Program-made: the position numbers and the translations under genes
Part shown: positions 4,946 through 50,910 of the stretch, one piece after another
Layout: the number at the start of each line of letters is the position of its first letter
Position numbering within the stretch: position 1 is the first letter of the stretch
Notes under the pieces: model-generated
Seen by the model: the letters and a program-made list of their open reading frames with translations, nothing else
Database searches by the model: none
Told to the model about the DNA's origin: nothing
Assembly: GCA_041651195.1 (NCBI GenBank)
Contig: JBAZJR010000002.1
Span: 117,857 to 181,856, forward strand
DNA from: Patescibacteria group bacterium
GTDB taxonomy: Bacteria > Patescibacteriota > Patescibacteriia > Patescibacteriales > UBA12465
Direction: 5' to 3'
Length of the DNA: 64,000 nt

Positions 4946-5152
4946 CTATTTCCGAGCTAAGCGACCAGAAACGCCGATCAAATATAGCGCGGCCAAGCCG
5001 ACCAGGGTATAAACGATACGCGCCAGGACGGACATAGCGCCGAAAAGAGCCGCCACCAAATCCCAACTAAAAAGGCCCACTAAGGCCCAGTTCAAACCGC
5101 CGACGACGACCAAGATGATGGCAATCCAATCCAGCGTAGTTAAGTTTTTCAT
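4946..5152 (-). CDS. DUF378-family small membrane protein
   Basis: 68 aa with two TM helices. 'LDWIAIILVVVGGLNWALVGLF' matches my recollection of the DUF378 signature. Confidence 0.7.
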   Translation of the reverse strand: MKNLTTLDWIAIILVVVGGLNWALVGLFSWDLVAALFGAMSVLARIVYTLVGLAALYLIGVSGRLARK

Positions 5153-44047: not shown

Positions 44048-45448
44048 ATGGCAACGAACGACCAAAATATCATGGCCAAAGTCCCGCCGCATAGCCTAGA
44101 AGCCGAAGAGTCCCTCCTCGGCTCTCTTCTGATAGATAAAGACGCGATCATCCGGGTGGCGGACACGATCATGCCGCAAGATTTCTATAAGGACAGCCAT
44201 AAGCTGATCTATGAAACGATGAAAGAGCTCTATGGCAACCAGGAACCGATCGATATCATTACCTTAGCCAACCGCCTGGAAGACAAGAAACAGCTCGCCG
44301 CTATCGGCGGGCGCTCATATCTCGCCCAGCTTTCTAATGCCGTCGCGACGTCCGGCAATATCACCAACTACGCCAATATTATCCAGCGCAAAGCCACGCT
44401 CCGCCGCCTGCAGCAAGCGGCCGCGGAAATTTCCAGCCTCAGCTTTGACGAAGAGCAGGAAATTGACGAAATTCTTGACCAGACGGAAAAAAAAGTCTTC
44501 GGCGTCTCCCGTAAATATTTAAAAAATGCTTTCTTGCCGATCGACAACCTGCTCACGGCCGCCTTTGAACGCATCGACGAACTGCATCGCCACAGCGGCA
44601 AGCTGCGCGGCCTTTCCACCGGTTTCCCGGACTTAGACAACCTCTTAGCCGGACTGCAAAAATCCGACCTCGTGATCCTGGCCGCCCGTCCATCCGTCGG
44701 CAAGACTTCCCTGGCTCTCGATATCGCTCGCCAAGCCTCGATCAAGAGTAAAGAAGGTGTCGGCATCTTCTCTTTAGAAATGAGCAAAGAGCAGCTAGTC
44801 GACCGCATGCTCTGTGCCCAGGCCGGTGTCAGTCTCTGGAAAATGCGGACCGGCAACCTCTCGGACAAAGAGGAAGATAATGATTTTGCGCGCATCGGCG
44901 AAGCAATGGGCAAACTGGCCGACGCGCCTATTTATATCGATGATTCGGGAACCCTCTCGATCATGGAAATCCGCGCTAAAGCCCGGCGCCTGCAGATGGA
45001 AAAAGGCCTGGGACTAATCGTCATCGACTACTTGCAGCTGATGGAAGGCCGGGGTAAATACGGCGACAACCGCGTCCAGGAAATCGCGGAGATCAGCCGC
45101 GGCTTGAAATCGATCGCCCGCGAACTGAATATCCCGATCCTCGCCCTGGCCCAGCTTTCCCGCGCCGTAGAACTTACTCATCCGGCTATTCCGAAACTAT
45201 CGCATCTGCGCGATTCCGGTTCGATCGAGCAGGATGCCGACGTGGTCATGTTCATTTACCGTAAAGCCGCCGACCGCGGCTATAATCCGAACGACCTGCC
45301 ATTAGAAGACCGCCACAAGGCGGAAATCTATATCGCCAAGCACCGCAACGGCCCGACCGGCCGGGTAGATCTCTTCTTCGACGAGAACACGGTCAGCTTC
45401 AAGACGATGGCCAAGAAACTGAGCGAGCCGGAGCCGGTAGAATTCTAA
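44048..45448 (+). CDS. dnaB: replicative DNA helicase
   Basis: 466 aa with 'PPHSLEAEESLLGSLL', Walker A 'ARPSVGKTS', 'VIDYLQLM' and 'LSQLSRAVE'. Confidence 0.95.
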   Translation: MATNDQNIMAKVPPHSLEAEESLLGSLLIDKDAIIRVADTIMPQDFYKDSHKLIYETMKELYGNQEPIDIITLANRLEDKKQLAAIGGRSYLAQLSNAVATSGNITNYANIIQRKATLRRLQQAAAEISSLSFDEEQEIDEILDQTEKKVFGVSRKYLKNAFLPIDNLLTAAFERIDELHRHSGKLRGLSTGFPDLDNLLAGLQKSDLVILAARPSVGKTSLALDIARQASIKSKEGVGIFSLEMSKEQLVDRMLCAQAGVSLWKMRTGNLSDKEEDNDFARIGEAMGKLADAPIYIDDSGTLSIMEIRAKARRLQMEKGLGLIVIDYLQLMEGRGKYGDNRVQEIAEISRGLKSIARELNIPILALAQLSRAVELTHPAIPKLSHLRDSGSIEQDADVVMFIYRKAADRGYNPNDLPLEDRHKAEIYIAKHRNGPTGRVDLFFDENTVSFKTMAKKLSEPEPVEF

Positions 45449-45477
45449 ATATTTTAACTATCTAAAATATAAAAATT

Positions 45478-45753
45478 ATGTTCAATAAACTAAAACAGAT
45501 CCGGGATCTGCGCAGCCAGGCCAAGACCATGCAAAACGTCTTAGCCCAAGAAACGATCACCGAAGAAAAAAACGGCGTGAAAGTCGTTTTGAACGGCAAT
45601 ATGGAAGTGCTGGAACTGAAATTGGGCGATGGCTTAACAAAGGAAGAACAAGAGAAAAACTTAAAGAATTGCTTCAACGACGCTTTGAAGCGCGCCCAGC
45701 GGATCATGGCCAAAAAACTGCAGGATATGGGCGGCATCCCGGGTATGAACTAA
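45478..45753 (+). CDS. ybaB: YbaB/EbfC nucleoid-associated protein
   Basis: 91 aa in the conserved position directly upstream of recR. 'NMEVLELKL' and the 'AFNDALKRAQ'-like region fit the family. Confidence 0.8.
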   Translation: MFNKLKQIRDLRSQAKTMQNVLAQETITEEKNGVKVVLNGNMEVLELKLGDGLTKEEQEKNLKNCFNDALKRAQRIMAKKLQDMGGIPGMN

Positions 45754-45776
45754 GCTCTAGGCTAATCGAAATAACC

Positions 45777-46373
45777 ATGAAATATCCGGCCGCCATCCAA
45801 AATCTGATTGAAAAATTATCCGCCTTACCGAGCGTCGGGCCCAAGACGGCCGAACGCTATGTTTTTTATCTACTCAAACAAAGCGCAGAAAAAATAAAAA
45901 GCTTGGCAACGGCCATCAGCGAATTAAAAGATAAGACGACCGTCTGCCATATCTGCGGTGCCATCGCCGAAAATGACCCCTGCGCGATCTGTAACGATCC
46001 AAGCCGCCAGAACGAGACGCTCTGCATCGTAGAAAACACCCAGGATCTAGCGGCCCTGGAAGCGACAAAACAATATAACGGCAAATACTTCGTCCTCGGC
46101 GGTCTGATCAACACGATCACGGAAATCAAGCCAAGCGACCTTAATATCCAAAAATTAGCCAGACAGATCAAGACAGGCGGCATCAAAGAAGTGATCCTGG
46201 CTCTAAATTTTACCTTAGAAGGAGAAACCACGGCTTTATACCTGACTAAGATGTTGAAAGATCATCTAAAAATAAGCCGCTTGGCCAAAGGCCTGCCAGC
46301 CGGCTCTAATCTGGAATACGCCGATGAGCTCACGCTCGGGAGCGCTTTAAGAAATAGACAGGAGGCTAAATAA
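45777..46373 (+). CDS. recR: recombination protein RecR
   Basis: Start at the ATG at 45777 (MKYPAAIQNLIEKLSALPSVGPKTAERY). Zinc finger 'CHICG...CAIC' and a Toprim region. Confidence 0.92.
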   Translation: MKYPAAIQNLIEKLSALPSVGPKTAERYVFYLLKQSAEKIKSLATAISELKDKTTVCHICGAIAENDPCAICNDPSRQNETLCIVENTQDLAALEATKQYNGKYFVLGGLINTITEIKPSDLNIQKLARQIKTGGIKEVILALNFTLEGETTALYLTKMLKDHLKISRLAKGLPAGSNLEYADELTLGSALRNRQEAK

Positions 46374-46398
46374 TTTATCAAAACACTCTGTTTATATA

Positions 46399-46428
46399 TA
46401 AACCACCACAGATAGGTCGGTGGTTTTT
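46399..46428. terminator. bidirectional terminator between recR and the DGR RT
   Basis: Stem aaaccacc / ggtggttt with an 11-nt loop and a trailing T-run. Confidence 0.6.
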
Positions 46429-46485
46429 TGATTTATATATTTAGCAAATATTGTTTAATATGTCAAAAGATGTTATAATAACTCA

Positions 46486-47469
46486 TTACCTTAATCCGAC
46501 CCGTTGGCGCAGTTTATAGGCATTGCCGTGCTCGAGCAAAGCGGAATAGGCGGCGCGAGTGGCTAGAGGAGGATCAGTTTCAATTCTCTTCAGCATCCGC
46601 CTCTTGGTGGTCGGCCGCAGGACTCGGTGATCGCCGAATTGCACCCAGCCCAGGAAATCGACGCCGCTCGCCAATGTTTTTAGATATACTTTCTTGGGAT
46701 GAAGGGATAACTTCAAGCGCCGCACCAGAAATTCCTCCAGCTTAGACTGTAGATCCAGAAGATAGCTGCGGTCGGGGCTCAGGAGCACAAAATCATCGGC
46801 ATAGCGGATATAATATTTCACTTTCAGGGAGCACTTCACGAACTGATCGAATTCGTCCATATAGACGTTGACCAAGAGTTGCGAAGTTAGGTTACCCAAG
46901 GGCAAACCGATGCCAGGACGGCCTAAAGTTTCAAAGCTGTCGATGACCTGGCCGAAAAGCCAGAGGAGTTCGGGGCCGGCGATATATTCGTTCAAAATAT
47001 CTTTTAGGATCTGATGGTCTATGCTGGCGAAGAATTTGCGGATATCGCCATTTAAAACCCAAACAGTGCGGTGACCGTTCCGCGAAACCTTATCGGCGAA
47101 CTCGGCGAAGCGACGGACGGCGCGGTGCGCCCCCTTATCTAAACGACAGGAATAGGAGTCGTGGATGAATTGCCGGTCGAAATAACGATAGGTTTCTTGA
47201 TACAAGAGATGATGGAGCAGGCGATCGCGGACCGCGGCCTTATGGATGCTACGCGGCTTGGGGTCGGAAATGTTGAAAGCCTGGTAAGGGCCGTGCTGAT
47301 AGGTTTTACTCTTTAGCTCCCGGTCGAGCCGGAACAGATTATCCGACAGTTTGGTTTGAAAGACAGCTACGTCCGTCCGCTGTCTTTTTCCAGATAAAAA
47401 ATCTTCCCAGGCCAAGAGCAGGTTGCCGGACGTGATTATCTCCTCGTATTTTTTACTAAATTTTTTCAT
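46486..47469 (-). CDS. DGR-type reverse transcriptase
   Basis: 327 aa. RT motifs include 'SIHKAAVRDRLLHHLL', 'LPLGNLTSQLLVNVYM' (the SQ signature I associate with DGR RTs) and catalytic 'IRYADDFVLL'. Confidence 0.9.
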   Translation of the reverse strand: MKKFSKKYEEIITSGNLLLAWEDFLSGKRQRTDVAVFQTKLSDNLFRLDRELKSKTYQHGPYQAFNISDPKPRSIHKAAVRDRLLHHLLYQETYRYFDRQFIHDSYSCRLDKGAHRAVRRFAEFADKVSRNGHRTVWVLNGDIRKFFASIDHQILKDILNEYIAGPELLWLFGQVIDSFETLGRPGIGLPLGNLTSQLLVNVYMDEFDQFVKCSLKVKYYIRYADDFVLLSPDRSYLLDLQSKLEEFLVRRLKLSLHPKKVYLKTLASGVDFLGWVQFGDHRVLRPTTKRRMLKRIETDPPLATRAAYSALLEHGNAYKLRQRVGLR

Positions 47470-47478
47470 TGTAAACTT

Positions 47479-47868
47479 ATGAGCGCCACTCTCCGCCCGC
47501 CCGTCGTCCTCATCAAGGCCAAGGAAGCTTACGCCCTCTGGTTTAAAATCCTCTCGGATTTCCCCAAAGTATACCGCTACAACCTGGGCGGAAAAATCGA
47601 AAATCTCTTTCTGTCATTTTTGGAAAATACCGTGGCCGCCATTTACGCCGCGGGCGAAAAGAAGGCGGCGCAGCTATCACTGGCCGTAATCAGGCTGGAC
47701 AGCCTGAAATTCTTTCTGCAGCTCGCCTGGGAAAACAAATGTCTCTCCAATGACAAATATCTGGAACTGGCTGCTCACCTGGAAGAAATAGGACGGATGA
47801 TCGGGGGCTGGATACGGGGCCTAAAGATGAAAACTCCCCCAAATAATGGAGGAGAAATAATGAAGTAG
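47479..47868 (+). CDS. avd: Avd-like accessory variability determinant (four-helix-bundle / 23S rRNA-IVS protein family)
   Basis: 129 aa, helical throughout. 'FPKVYRYNLGGKIE', 'LDSLKFFLQLAWENKCLS' and 'IGRMIGGWIRGL' fit the family pattern. It lies on the opposite strand to the RT, TR and target. Confidence 0.8.
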   Translation: MSATLRPPVVLIKAKEAYALWFKILSDFPKVYRYNLGGKIENLFLSFLENTVAAIYAAGEKKAAQLSLAVIRLDSLKFFLQLAWENKCLSNDKYLELAAHLEEIGRMIGGWIRGLKMKTPPNNGGEIMK

Positions 47869-47973
47869 CGGAACGAACAAGCGATGACGATTCTCGCCAT
47901 TCCAGACGTTGTCGTTCAGGAAGCCGTTCACGTTGGCCTTCAAGCCGTCCGAATTCACGTTCACGTTGGCCAC
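47868..47973 (-). repeat. DGR template repeat (TR)
   Basis: 106 bp matching 48313..48418 except at 11 positions, all T on the + strand (A on the - strand). The minus-strand reading is AAC/AAT-rich. Confidence 0.9.
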
Positions 47974-48199
47974 GAAATGTATAAGCTTCCTTCCCTTACA
48001 CCGCCGGCCTGAAAGAAGGCGCGGCTGAATCTTACTCGGAGCCTAGAAGCTCACCAGCAGCTTATACCAACTTGATTATTTTTTTATTGCTAACGCCGCC
48101 GCCCTCGCGCCAACCTTGACCGGCGCGACTCCGGACGACATTCTCAAACGGCCTTGGCCCGCCAGCCGTAACCGACGGACAATACAAAACCATATTTTA

Positions 48200-48228
48200 A
48201 TTATATAGAAAAATCCCTCGGAATCCAA
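48200..48228 (-). promoter_or_regulatory. candidate promoter for the TR transcript
   Basis: Minus strand reads TTGGAT (48228..48223), a 17-nt spacer, then TATAAT (48205..48200). It overlaps the 3' arm of the terminator hairpin. Confidence 0.4.
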
Positions 48229-48270
48229 GAGCACTTTTGCTGAAAACAAAGTGCAAATGATCCGAGGGAT
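48208..48270 (-). terminator. nested hairpin / intrinsic terminator after the DGR target gene
   Basis: Outer stem atccctcgga / tccgagggat (48213..48222 / 48261..48270). Inner stem gcacttt / aaagtgc (48231..48237 / 48248..48254). TTTTT follows on the minus strand. It begins 22 nt after the target stop codon. Confidence 0.65.
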
Positions 48271-48292
48271 ACAAAGGGCAAACCCAAAATTA

Positions 48293-49006
48293 CTAAGCTG
48301 CCAAAAACAGTTGCGGAACGAACAAGCGATGACGATGCTCGCCATACCAGACGCCGTCGTTCAGGAAGCCGTGCACGCAGGCCACCAAGCCGTCCGAATT
48401 CACGTACACGCGGGCCACAAACAGGTTATCGTCGGTTGCCGGCAAATTTTCGTCCTTTTTGACCAGGAAAAAGTTCGCGTAACCTTCCAACCGGAGATTC
48501 TTCTGGTTGGAGCAGATGGATATCATCTGATCCTGAGTCAACCATAATCTTTCGAGGTCGACGCCGAACGAGGTGAACATCTGCTTGAAGGTGGCGCCTG
48601 AAGTTAGCTCATATGCCGAGCTCTTTGCCCGCTTGGTCGCTGTTCCCGGTCGATCCAAACCGTATTTTTTGAAATTCGTATCAATATAACCGCGAAAGGT
48701 CCCGCTGGCTTCGGAAATGATTCTCTTTCCATCCGCAGCTGGTATGGAAATAGCAGACAATCCCGGAATCAGCTGCAGGCAGCTGGTGTTTTGGACTAAT
48801 TGCGGTTTGGCAACGATGATCTTGTTGTCGCTTTCCCATCGCTGGTTATTAAACTTGTTATTTACGATGTCCTGTAGCGCGACCGCTACGGACTCGGGAT
48901 CAAGCGGACTCCCGTACTTTTGGTCCAATTGGCGAAAAATGTCCCGCACTTTACGATGAATAGTGCGGTATTGATCGCCGGTGACAGCAAATTTTTGCTT
49001 GGCCAT
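48293..49006 (-). CDS. DGR variable (target) protein
   Basis: 237-aa ORF whose last ~40 codons are the VR (...VARVYVNSDGLVACVHGFLNDGVWYGEHRHRLFVPQLFLAA*). AGGAGA Shine-Dalgarno upstream. No signal peptide or TM helix evident. Confidence 0.85.
   Translation of the reverse strand: MAKQKFAVTGDQYRTIHRKVRDIFRQLDQKYGSPLDPESVAVALQDIVNNKFNNQRWESDNKIIVAKPQLVQNTSCLQLIPGLSAISIPAADGKRIISEASGTFRGYIDTNFKKYGLDRPGTATKRAKSSAYELTSGATFKQMFTSFGVDLERLWLTQDQMISICSNQKNLRLEGYANFFLVKKDENLPATDDNLFVARVYVNSDGLVACVHGFLNDGVWYGEHRHRLFVPQLFLAA
48313..48418 (-). repeat. DGR variable repeat (VR)
   Basis: Counterpart of TR, at the 3' end of the target ORF. It ends 20 nt before the stop codon. Confidence 0.9.
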
Positions 49007-49115
49007 GACAATCTCCTATGGATTGATAAATTTAATAGAACTTTCACCTATTATTACTTTGACCCGGTGAATTTTGGGCAAACGCTCAATTTATTCTGAG
49101 CAATTGTATAAAGCT

Positions 49116-49144
49116 ATATTAACATAAATTATATTTTATGTCAA
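49116..49144 (-). promoter_or_regulatory. near-consensus promoter of the DGR target gene
   Basis: Minus strand reads TTGACA (49144..49139), a 17-nt spacer, then TAATAT (49121..49116). Confidence 0.6.
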
Positions 49145-49162
49145 CTAACAACAATTATAATT

Positions 49163-49198
49163 AAAAAAATCCTCACTTGAACTTGAAGAGGATTTTTT
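49163..49198. terminator. bidirectional intrinsic terminator after rplU
   Basis: Stem aaaaaatcctc / gaggatttttt with a 13-nt loop. Confidence 0.7.
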
Positions 49199-49213
49199 AA
49201 ATATTTAGCAGTT

Positions 49214-49522
49214 TTAAGCAATCTTGGTCACCTTCAAAGCCGTAAACTGTTGGCGATGACCAACGGTTTTCTTATAACGGGTCTTATTCTTATATTTGAC
49301 AACTGTCACTTTCGGGCCCTTGGCCGTCGTTATGACTTCCGCCTCAACCTTCTCTCCCAAAGACGGCCGGCCTAATTCTAATTTCGCGCCATCCGCCACC
49401 AAGAGTGTTTCTAATTTAACTTTTTGGCCATTTTCCACGGCCAGCTTCTCCACTTTTACCGTATCACCTTCCTTGACCTTATATTGTTTCCCACCGGTTT
49501 TAACAACAGCGATTTTTGACAT
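49214..49522 (-). CDS. rplU: 50S ribosomal protein L21
   Basis: 102 aa: 'AVVKTGGKQYKVKEGD...', 'KVTVVKYKNKTRYKKTVGHRQ'. Confidence 0.93.
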   Translation of the reverse strand: MSKIAVVKTGGKQYKVKEGDTVKVEKLAVENGQKVKLETLLVADGAKLELGRPSLGEKVEAEVITTAKGPKVTVVKYKNKTRYKKTVGHRQQFTALKVTKIA

Positions 49523-49650
49523 ATTGAGTAATTCTTATATAAAAAATCAGAGCTAAGTCTGAACGGGATTAATAATAGCAAATATTTGAAAAATGTCAAT
49601 AAATAAGTTATAGTGATGTCAGTTAACGACATTATCTACTATTTACTAAT

Positions 49651-50910
49651 ATGACAAAATTCATCATTACTGGCGGCCAAGAATTAAAAGGAGAAATAAT
49701 CACCGGCGGCGCTAAAAATAACGCCCAGATCATGATTCCGGTATCTCTATTATCCGCGGCGACCATCACTTTAAGCAATGTCCCCCGGATAGATGGGGTA
49801 GAAAAATCACTGGAATTGCTCAGCGACTTAGGGGCGGAAATCCAAGACCGCGGCGATAAAATACAGATCAATACCGCTAAGGTCACCAAGGCGGAACTAG
49901 ATAAAAAAATCGCTGATAAATTCCGGACCTCCATAATGTTCGTCGGGCCACTTTTAGCGCGTTTCGGGCGCGTCCGCTTCCCGCATCCGGGCGGCTGCGT
50001 CATCGGCGCGGCCGGGCGGCCGATCGACCTCTTCTTAGAGGGCTTCACGGCTTTAGGGGCGACGATCGAAATCAAAGATAACTATTACGAGATCAGCGCC
50101 AAAAAATTAACAGGCACTAATTTCTTCTTTACGACCGCGACCGTCACCGGCACGCAGAGCCTGATTATGACCGCTTGTCTCGCGAGCGGACGGACGATTT
50201 TAAAAAATTGCGCCATGGAGCCAGAAGTCGAAGCTCTGGCCGATTACCTAAATAGACAAGGCGCGAAAATCACCGGCGCTGGCACGCCGACGATCACGAT
50301 CGACGGCGTCAAAGAACTAGGAGCCGGCGACTGCGAAATAATCCCCGACCGGATCGAGGCCGGATCATTCGCCATCATGGCCGCCGCCACCGATTCCGCG
50401 ATCAAGATCAGCCATTGCAATCCCGAACATCTGCTAAATCTGCTCGCGATCTTCGACAAGATCGGCGTCAAATACGACCGCGGCGCTGATTGGATAAGCA
50501 TAAAGAAATCCCGCCCGCTCAAAGCTTATGATTTGAAAACGCATGAATATCCCGGCTTCTCTACTGACCTGCAGTCGCCCTATGTCGTCCTGATGACGCA
50601 GGCGCAAGGGACAGCCCTAATCCAGGAGACGATTTATGACCGCCGCTTGATCTGGGCCGATATGCTCTCCCAGATGGGCGCGAACATCATCATGTGCGAT
50701 CCGCACCGGGTCGCGGTCAGCGGTCCGACCAAGCTTTACGGCAAAAAATTGATCAGCCCGGATATCCGCGCTGGCATCGCTCTCGTCATCGCGGCGCTCA
50801 TTGCCGAAGGGCGCACAGAAATAGATAATATCTACCAGATCGACCGCGGCTATGAAAAATTAGACGCCCGCCTAAGAGCTCTCGGCGCCATCATCGAACG
50901 ATCCGAATAA
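49651..50910 (+). CDS. murA: UDP-N-acetylglucosamine 1-carboxyvinyltransferase
   Basis: 419 aa with 'GGAKNNA', 'HPGGCVIGAAGRPIDL' (catalytic Cys context) and 'IYQIDRGYEKLD'. Confidence 0.93.
   Translation: MTKFIITGGQELKGEIITGGAKNNAQIMIPVSLLSAATITLSNVPRIDGVEKSLELLSDLGAEIQDRGDKIQINTAKVTKAELDKKIADKFRTSIMFVGPLLARFGRVRFPHPGGCVIGAAGRPIDLFLEGFTALGATIEIKDNYYEISAKKLTGTNFFFTTATVTGTQSLIMTACLASGRTILKNCAMEPEVEALADYLNRQGAKITGAGTPTITIDGVKELGAGDCEIIPDRIEAGSFAIMAAATDSAIKISHCNPEHLLNLLAIFDKIGVKYDRGADWISIKKSRPLKAYDLKTHEYPGFSTDLQSPYVVLMTQAQGTALIQETIYDRRLIWADMLSQMGANIIMCDPHRVAVSGPTKLYGKKLISPDIRAGIALVIAALIAEGRTEIDNIYQIDRGYEKLDARLRALGAIIERSE

Follow-up and report, generated by a model that had tools for sequence, protein, structure and literature searches.

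An inverted avd gene and conserved RNA structures around the template repeat of a diversity-generating retroelement from Patescibacteria

We have analysed the diversity-generating retroelement (DGR) that is located in a 64,000-nucleotide (nt) window of contig JBAZJR010000002.1 (positions 117,857 to 181,856 of the forward strand; assembly GCA_041651195.1) from a Patescibacteria group bacterium; all coordinates refer to the whole window, and the stretch that was read for genes is 46000..49500, together with the list of open reading frames (ORFs). The comparison of this locus with 80 related loci, which were obtained from a scan with the reverse transcriptase (RT) protein and represent one genome per species, most of the records being named as metagenome-assembled genomes of the candidate phyla radiation (CPR)/Patescibacteria, has shown two things: first, that the inverted orientation of the accessory gene avd, the tight divergent junction between the RT gene and avd, and the position of the 3' end of the template repeat (TR), which abuts the avd stop codon, are conserved traits of the family; second, that on both sides of the TR the RNA of the same strand has a structure that is conserved and covaries. 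The element is a DGR of the published architecture B3 and, when these findings are read jointly, it is likely that the TR is carried in a stand-alone RNA, with the scaffold located 5' of the TR, and that avd and the RT gene are expressed from separate mRNAs.

The layout alone is of no weight, since it has been catalogued since 2017, while the RNA structures that flank the TR, and a simple-repeat tract that we have found at the start of avd in the relatives, appear to be undescribed. The comparison of the family gives a testable answer to the question of how DGRs with no spacer between TR and RT supply the scaffold that the DGR of BPP-1 needs: what we propose is a separate RNA of ~365 nt, the helices of which are defined and the start and end of which are predicted. 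If the placement of the scaffold 5' of the TR is true, the functional RNA of the largest environmental DGR clade escapes surveys that cover only the region downstream of the TR. The poly-C tract of the relatives would act as a genetic switch of a simple kind, by which targeted hypermutation is turned on and off.

Gene layout and the B3 architecture

The genes and repeats of the locus are located as follows, with the source of each assignment in parentheses:

46486..47469, minus strand: DGR reverse transcriptase, 327 amino acids (ORF list, Pfam, RT-protein scan)
47470..47478, no strand: spacer of 9 bp, with the divergent RT and avd start codons on either side (sequence read)
47479..47868, plus strand: avd, 129 amino acids, inverted with respect to TR and RT (Pfam bAvd, opposite strand in 76 loci)
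47868..47973, minus strand: TR, with homology at the level of BLAST over 47864..47976 (TR/VR alignment)
~48309..48421, minus strand: variable repeat (VR), with its core at 48313..48418 (TR/VR alignment)
48293..49006, minus strand: target gene, 237 amino acids, with the VR at its 3' end (ORF list, TR/VR alignment)

These coordinates and strands of RT, Avd, TR and VR/target had been put forward in the original prediction, a short note made from the sequence of the window, and they are confirmed by our reading of the sequence, the ORF list and Pfam. The RT translation matches Pfam RVT_1 (E 5e-16) and contains the motifs LGNLTSQ and YADD, in agreement with the DGR-type motif 4, [ILV]GxxxSQ, a signature that is diagnostic for DGR RTs, and with the catalytic YxDD; the avd product matches Pfam bAvd (PF22296, E 2.9e-14), exceeding the curated cut-off, and the product of the target gene matches no Pfam family. 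The RT and avd ATGs are separated by exactly 9 bp (cat tgtaaactt atg), so that the two genes do diverge from almost no intergenic DNA, and the avd stop codon TAG (47866..47868) does share its last base with the 3' end of the TR, its G (47868) being the final base of perfect TR/VR identity. The remark that neither start has an obvious Shine-Dalgarno sequence also holds: no GGAGG-like sequence occurs within 20 nt upstream of the RT or the avd ATG, and the closest GGAG on the RT strand is located 21 nt from the RT ATG.

The TR/VR pair extends over 113 bp and contains 14 differences, of which 12 are located at TR adenines, while in the core every one of the 12 differences is at a TR adenine; the homology at the level of BLAST continues 4 nt past 47868, with one mismatch. 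Judging from this static pattern of differences, the locus is a DGR of the CPR type that is apparently active. Just beyond the last shared base (47867 compared with 48312), the TR reads CCGCTACT and the VR reads CCGCAACT (the family consensus of the motif); this non-adenine difference, located in an end that resembles the initiation of mutagenic homing (IMH) element, might distinguish the donor from the recipient.

The original prediction had described the layout as unusual and had proposed the comparison of synteny among related DGRs. By tblastn, an Avd homologue is found on the opposite strand, directly upstream of the RT gene, in 76 of the 80 loci, the other four having too little upstream flank; the inverted avd is conserved in all 76 informative relatives, and the layout is unusual only in relation to BPP-1. 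The gap between the RT and avd starts, projected on the numbering of the window, has a median of 9 bp (range -23 to +120); among the seven relatives that are closest to the window, it lies at 8-10 bp. In 63 related loci, and in the window, a TR/VR pair is present the differences of which are adenine-specific, and across these the TR end falls -48 to +37 nt from the avd stop.

The architecture B3, TR-(avd)-RT, has been defined by Wu et al. 2018 (NAR 46:11, PMC5758913) and accounts for 90% of their CPR DGRs. In the window, Avd is the sole accessory gene, it is placed between TR and the gene for the RT, and it lies on the opposite strand: the locus is an ordinary B3 member, with the order target/VR - spacer - TR - (avd) - RT.

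Local variations of this layout occur among the relatives. The avd ATG and the RT ATG overlap as a shared CATG in L018, L038 and L048, while in other loci, e.g. L014 and L016, the avd ATG is read from the complement of the His6 codon of the RT, which gives the divergent genes an overlap of 18 nt (six codons). Two targets/VRs per single TR are seen in several relatives, with second target/VR matches in L003, L004, L006 and L007; the VR is located on the opposite strand in L027 and L065, and some of the extra targets/VRs are inverted or located downstream of the RT gene.

Conserved RNA structures on both sides of the template repeat

The structural elements around the TR, all on the minus strand (i.e. 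the strand of the TR), are listed in the direction in which this strand is read:

48215..48231: terminator-like hairpin and T-run after the target gene (terminator scan; T-run conserved in the family alignment)
48200..48205: TATAAT, the predicted -10 element of the TR RNA, with a predicted start at ~48192 (family alignment)
48148..48193: hairpin A, with a covarying lower stem, a conserved apical GGUUACGGCU and a UACG-type loop (RNAalifold pair counts, single-sequence fold)
48087..48147: hairpin B, with the apical motif of hairpin A, which reads GGUCAAGGUU in the window (RNAalifold pair counts, single-sequence fold)
47979..48067: three-helix junction directly upstream of the TR (MAFFT and RNAalifold, covariance model R2)
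48067..48056 with 47990..47979: P1, a long-range helix of 12 bp (column-to-coordinate mapping)
48052..48049 with 48042..48039: P2, a short hairpin (column-to-coordinate mapping)
48025..48021 with 48007..48003: P3, a hairpin followed by an invariant GUG (column-to-coordinate mapping)
47825..47854: stem-loop of 8 bp (47854..47834) followed by UUUUCAUCU, antisense to the C-terminal tail of avd (terminator scan, covariance model R1)

The three-helix junction has been identified by folding with RNAalifold an alignment of the 140 nt upstream of the TR from 64 loci, which was made with MAFFT and involved no structure fitting. In this alignment, pairing is seen in 93.6% of the cells, whereas shuffles reach 69.2% and no slid placement of the structure exceeds 51%; cells with a double change number 387, compared with 106 in shuffles, and compensatory changes occur in 19 of the 21 pairs. 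The helix P1 terminates 5 nt before the TR, and P2 is followed by a conserved, A-rich single strand (GAGUAAGAUUCAG; GAAUAAnAUWCAG). The extension of the alignment to 300 nt adds hairpins A and B, the pairs of which are 84-98% canonical and of many types. Conserved G-U pairs are found in hairpin A (58 of 63) and in P1 (57 of 63), and these correspond to C-A mismatches on the opposite strand; the structure is thus specific to the RNA of the TR strand.

The covariance model R2, which represents this domain, has a strong match directly upstream of the TR in 72 of the 80 loci, nine of which were absent from the seed. Its single match in the window (47958..48114) scores 89 bits (E 3e-14), and the only extra match is a weak second copy of 37 bits in one relative (L011:3960-4114), ~300 nt upstream of the main copy. 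The 222 nt of the window, folded alone, form the same hairpins (z = -3.5). No Rfam family matches at E <= 1 in 46300..49200, and the motifs RT-1 to RT-19, including RT-10 of BPP-1, are not present there.

On the other side of the TR, the terminator scan has revealed CTCCTCCA-TTATT-TGGGGGAG at 47854..47834, then TTTTCATCTT, on the TR strand, beginning 14 nt past the TR end; a similar hairpin with a T-run is located at the same place in nearly every relative, with different stem sequences. The covariance model R1 of this stem-loop has one match per locus in 70 of the 80 loci, the window match being single (47807..47879, 51 bits, E 3e-8), and no further matches at E 0.01 are found in 743 kb. In the R1 alignment, 88.4% of the cells are paired, whereas shuffles reach 67.9% and no slid placement exceeds 66%, and double-change cells number 122, compared with 33 in shuffles; the UUUU that follows the stem is nearly invariant across the 70 loci. 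The position of the stem-loop relative to the avd ORF varies (within it in 32 loci, spanning its end in 34, outside it in four), and the codon phase of the U-run differs between loci; the stem-loop is therefore not a by-product of the coding of Avd. Its form looks like that of a canonical intrinsic (Rho-independent) terminator, and the function of a terminator is predicted for it.

In BPP-1, the Avd-binding stem-loop consists of the first 33 nt after the TR, and stem-loops that bind Avd have been predicted in 207 of 278 Avd-containing DGRs, CPR included (Handa et al., bioRxiv 10.1101/2023.10.23.563531); from this likeness in position, we infer that the 3' stem-loop is the positional counterpart of that of BPP-1, with a putative role in the binding of Avd. 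The TR end and the tail after the stem are also associated (alignment A3): the TR end CGAAAC occurs with UUUUC in 23 of 33 loci, and CGCAAC with UUUUG in 14 of 27, counts that are confounded by relatedness. The association is suggestive and compatible with the hypothesis, which we keep, that the U-run pairs with the 3' end of the TR in the manner of a template:primer duplex.

The original prediction had proposed that the RNA 3' of the TR be folded: the covarying stem-loop has emerged there, while no conserved structure is seen further into antisense avd. A codon-guided alignment of 65 avd genes, folded with RNAalifold, gives no conserved RNA structure in the avd body, sense or antisense, and the conserved RNA that is antisense to avd is limited to ~35-45 nt. 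The idea of a scaffold hidden in antisense avd, similar to the spacer (Sp) of BPP-1, has been dropped, as the avd body has no supported pairs in this fold. A duplex between the 80 nt upstream of the TR and the 140 nt downstream of the stem-loop was also searched for with RNAduplex, a crude test that permits long interior loops, and the outcome (median z -0.2) is no improvement on shuffles.

Transcription units and alternative explanations

The family consensus upstream of hairpins A and B, TTTTTTGnTATAnT, can be read as the T-run of the target terminator, followed by an extended -10 element. At the aligned position, TAnnnT is present in 52 of 64 loci, and 29 of those 52 have the extended TG; we infer that the conserved (TGn)TATAnT is the -10 element of the TR RNA, located ~220 nt upstream of the TR. 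A scan of the window with the sigma-70 consensus gives hits that are not above shuffles, none of them usable for RT, avd or TR, and the positional enrichment across loci is more informative than such a scan of a single window.

The placement of the avd and RT promoters inside each other's coding sequence, one of the two possibilities that had been raised originally, is supported in part, for avd and at the level of the family. In the related loci, -10-like hexamers are strongly enriched 31-50 nt upstream of the avd starts, inside RT codons (78 in two bins, compared with ~5 per bin elsewhere); the enriched hexamers, GATAAT, AATAAT and TATTAT, are the antisense of the conserved Y(D/E)NII motif at the N-terminus of the RT, which corresponds to 47420..47450 (plus strand) in the window. 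This region is a candidate dual-coded avd promoter, while in the window itself no hexamer exceeds the threshold.

According to the reading that we consider likely, the TR would be transcribed as a discrete RNA of ~365 nt, from ~48192 to ~47825, which would begin at the conserved (TGn)TATAnT just past the terminator of the target gene and would mostly end at the 3' stem-loop and its U-run. The scaffold that holds RT-Avd on the template would be located mainly 5' of the TR, in the spacer between VR and TR, and this placement would leave the DNA downstream of the TR free for the inverted avd; with a stand-alone RNA of this kind, only ~35-45 nt of functional RNA would be antisense to avd. Separate mRNAs would be made for avd and RT, with a very short leader or none and lacking a Shine-Dalgarno sequence, and their promoters would lie within the coding sequence of the neighbour. 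Wu et al. 2018 (PMC5758913) have noted that cassettes with components on different strands require at least two transcription units, and that the co-transcription of TR and RT is not obligatory.

Several points weigh against this reading. The transcription start, the 3' end of the RNA and the efficiency of the terminator are all predictions, and no strong -10 element is found upstream of avd or RT in the window, where none exceeds the threshold and GATTAT is weak. On the opposite strand, the U-run is read as lysine codons of Avd, and coding could explain part of its conservation. The essential RNA of BPP-1 reaches 140 nt beyond the TR and, if the same holds here, the RNA reads into antisense avd, where a lineage-specific structure could be missed by a test across the whole family. 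Duplexes of the "cPRT Stop" type between upstream and downstream sequences have been predicted in many DGRs, including those of CPR (Handa et al., bioRxiv 10.1101/2023.10.23.563531), while our crude duplex test gives no such signal. Lastly, the literature that we have searched, which does not include Paul et al. 2017, the main paper on CPR DGRs, contains no description of a structured RNA of CPR B3 DGRs, and only a trailing scaffold is described.

The alternative that survives best was also raised in the original prediction, and we consider it rather unlikely: TR and RT would form one transcript, which would begin upstream of the TR and run ~390 nt antisense through avd; the stem-loop would be an Avd-binding element or an attenuator, and the antisense would couple the expression of avd and RT. 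Such a co-transcript is in agreement with the co-orientation of TR and RT, with the lack of a convincing RT promoter in the window, with an RT start that has no Shine-Dalgarno sequence and just 9 bp of non-coding DNA upstream, with the continuation of the functional RNA of BPP-1 for 140 nt past the TR, and with the leakiness that is common among intrinsic terminators. However, the stem and UUUU have the canonical form of a terminator and are nearly invariant in 70 loci, the conserved scaffold is located 5' of the TR, no conserved structure is seen in the avd body in antisense, and the co-transcription of TR and RT is not a requirement (Wu et al. 2018, PMC5758913). With a conserved -10 element predicted for the TR itself, a terminator-like stem-loop after it and an avd body that shows no conserved structure, we have found no support for the co-transcript.

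It is very improbable that the structures that flank the TR act on DNA or on the mRNA of the target, either as hairpins for the recognition of the target site, comparable to the GC-rich cruciform after the VR of BPP-1, or as an element in the 3' untranslated region that stabilises the mRNA of the target gene. The elements are indeed situated between VR and TR, and a DNA hairpin downstream of the IMH is required for the retrohoming of BPP-1; against this, the conserved G-U pairs argue for an RNA of the TR strand, the terminator and the -10 element stand between the domain and the target gene, and P1 ends next to the TR, at a distance of 5 nt, not beside the VR.

That the inversion is a one-off assembly artefact, or that the plus-strand Avd ORF is spurious, has a negligible probability and is refuted by the Pfam bAvd match (E 2.9e-14) and by the same orientation in 76 independent assemblies from many studies, and no overlooked minus-strand ORF explains 47479..47868 better than avd, the candidates in the ORF list being a TTG ORF of 50 amino acids and the reading frame of the TR.

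Thus far, the stand-alone template RNA and the separate avd and RT mRNAs remain our preferred reading of the locus. Two observations concern its surroundings. A terminator-like hairpin with a T-run is located at 47690..47707 (plus strand), in the coding sequence of avd and on its strand, probably by chance. The DGR is flanked by housekeeping genes (44048..46373 and 49214..50910), as judged by eye from their translations: one side has dnaB-like and recR-like genes with a small YbaB-like ORF, the other has rplU-like and murA-like genes. Such neighbours suggest that the DGR belongs to the chromosome and is not carried by a phage. Wu et al. 2018 (PMC5758913) have mentioned genes for ribosomal proteins in the vicinity of some CPR DGRs.

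Repeat tract of the relatives and comparison with known systems

A run of G7-12, which is poly-C on the avd strand and encodes PPP, is located in the RT/avd junction of 52 of 61 related loci (e.g. L008:1500-1530, L009:4975-5000, L014, L016, L020 and L055). The poly-C tract is absent from the window (equivalent region 47470..47510) and from L001-L007, where an interrupted tract, CGCCCGCCCG, is found together with an in-frame ATG. Across the loci, the ATG is in frame with the avd body in only ~14 of 55, and in most of the others it is one base off; in L078, a CA dinucleotide repeat of ~11 units (~4960-5000) replaces the poly-C tract. Two metagenome contigs, L087 and L096, share 99.1% identity across 2,066 nt; no indel separates them except in this tract, which is G9 (in frame) in L087 and G10 in L096. 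In the relatives, the tract looks like a simple-repeat switch of Avd, with assembly error and transcriptional slippage as alternatives; no DGR linked to such repeat tracts was found in the literature searched.

The phase-variable genes of Neisseria, Campylobacter and Bordetella are defined by a homopolymer or repeat in the 5' coding region that sets the reading frame. Similarly to these genes, the C7-12 tract at the 5' end of avd sets the frame in the relatives, and only in the relatives; unlike them, the window has no tract, and the switching of the relatives is putative.

In relation to B3 as described by Wu et al. 2018, the window has the same order and orientation of TR, avd and RT, a CPR/Patescibacteria host, and a target with a VR located upstream on the TR strand; the layout itself is identical, while the B3 paper contains no RNA structures, no promoter or terminator of the TR, and no simple repeat at the avd start.

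The non-coding RNA of retrons (msr-msd) is likewise a stand-alone structured RNA beside an RT gene, with a template and elements that position the RT. Unlike the window, retrons prime from the 2'-OH of a branching G within inverted repeats and yield multicopy single-stranded DNA (msDNA), and they have no VR/TR pair, adenine mutagenesis or Avd.

The DGR of BPP-1, which belongs to architecture B1, shares with the window the adenine-specific transfer from TR to VR, the pair of Avd and RT, a stem-loop directly 3' of the TR, and a duplex of ~12 bp that ends just 5' of the TR. The two differ in that avd is co-oriented in BPP-1 and inverted in the window, and in that the scaffold of BPP-1 is carried by a non-coding spacer of 140 nt between TR and brt, while the window has the avd gene there and no TR-RT spacer. 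The RNA of BPP-1 is the Rfam RT-10 motif, which has no match in the window, and the 3' stem-loop of the window has the full form of an intrinsic terminator, unlike the stem-loop of BPP-1 as described.

The order of the elements is also comparable. Positions 59-139 of the BPP-1 Sp consist of the cPRT Stop strand, a short stem-loop, unpaired adenosines (the thumb ring) and the stem-loop that binds bRT, with the duplex partner just upstream of the TR; the window mirrors this order with the 5' strand of P1, a short stem-loop, the A-rich single strand, a longer stem-loop, and the 3' strand of P1 before the TR. In BPP-1, one partner of the duplex comes from downstream of the TR, whereas in the window both strands are located 5' of the TR. 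From this analogy, we tentatively suggest, as a possibility of lower standing than the stand-alone RNA itself, that CPR B3 DGRs use a permuted stand-alone template RNA: the 3' module of BPP-1 (the cPRT Stop duplex strand, the short stem-loop, the A-rich "thumb ring" strand and the RT-binding stem-loop) would have been moved 5' of the TR, where it would close on itself as P1, and the region 3' of the TR would retain no more than the stem-loop that binds Avd and a primer strand rich in U. The 3' end made by the terminator would prime the cDNA while paired to (C/A)AA at the 3' end of the TR, and the length of the poly-C tract in most of the relatives would switch Avd, and hence hypermutation, on and off, with the subgroup of the window locked on.

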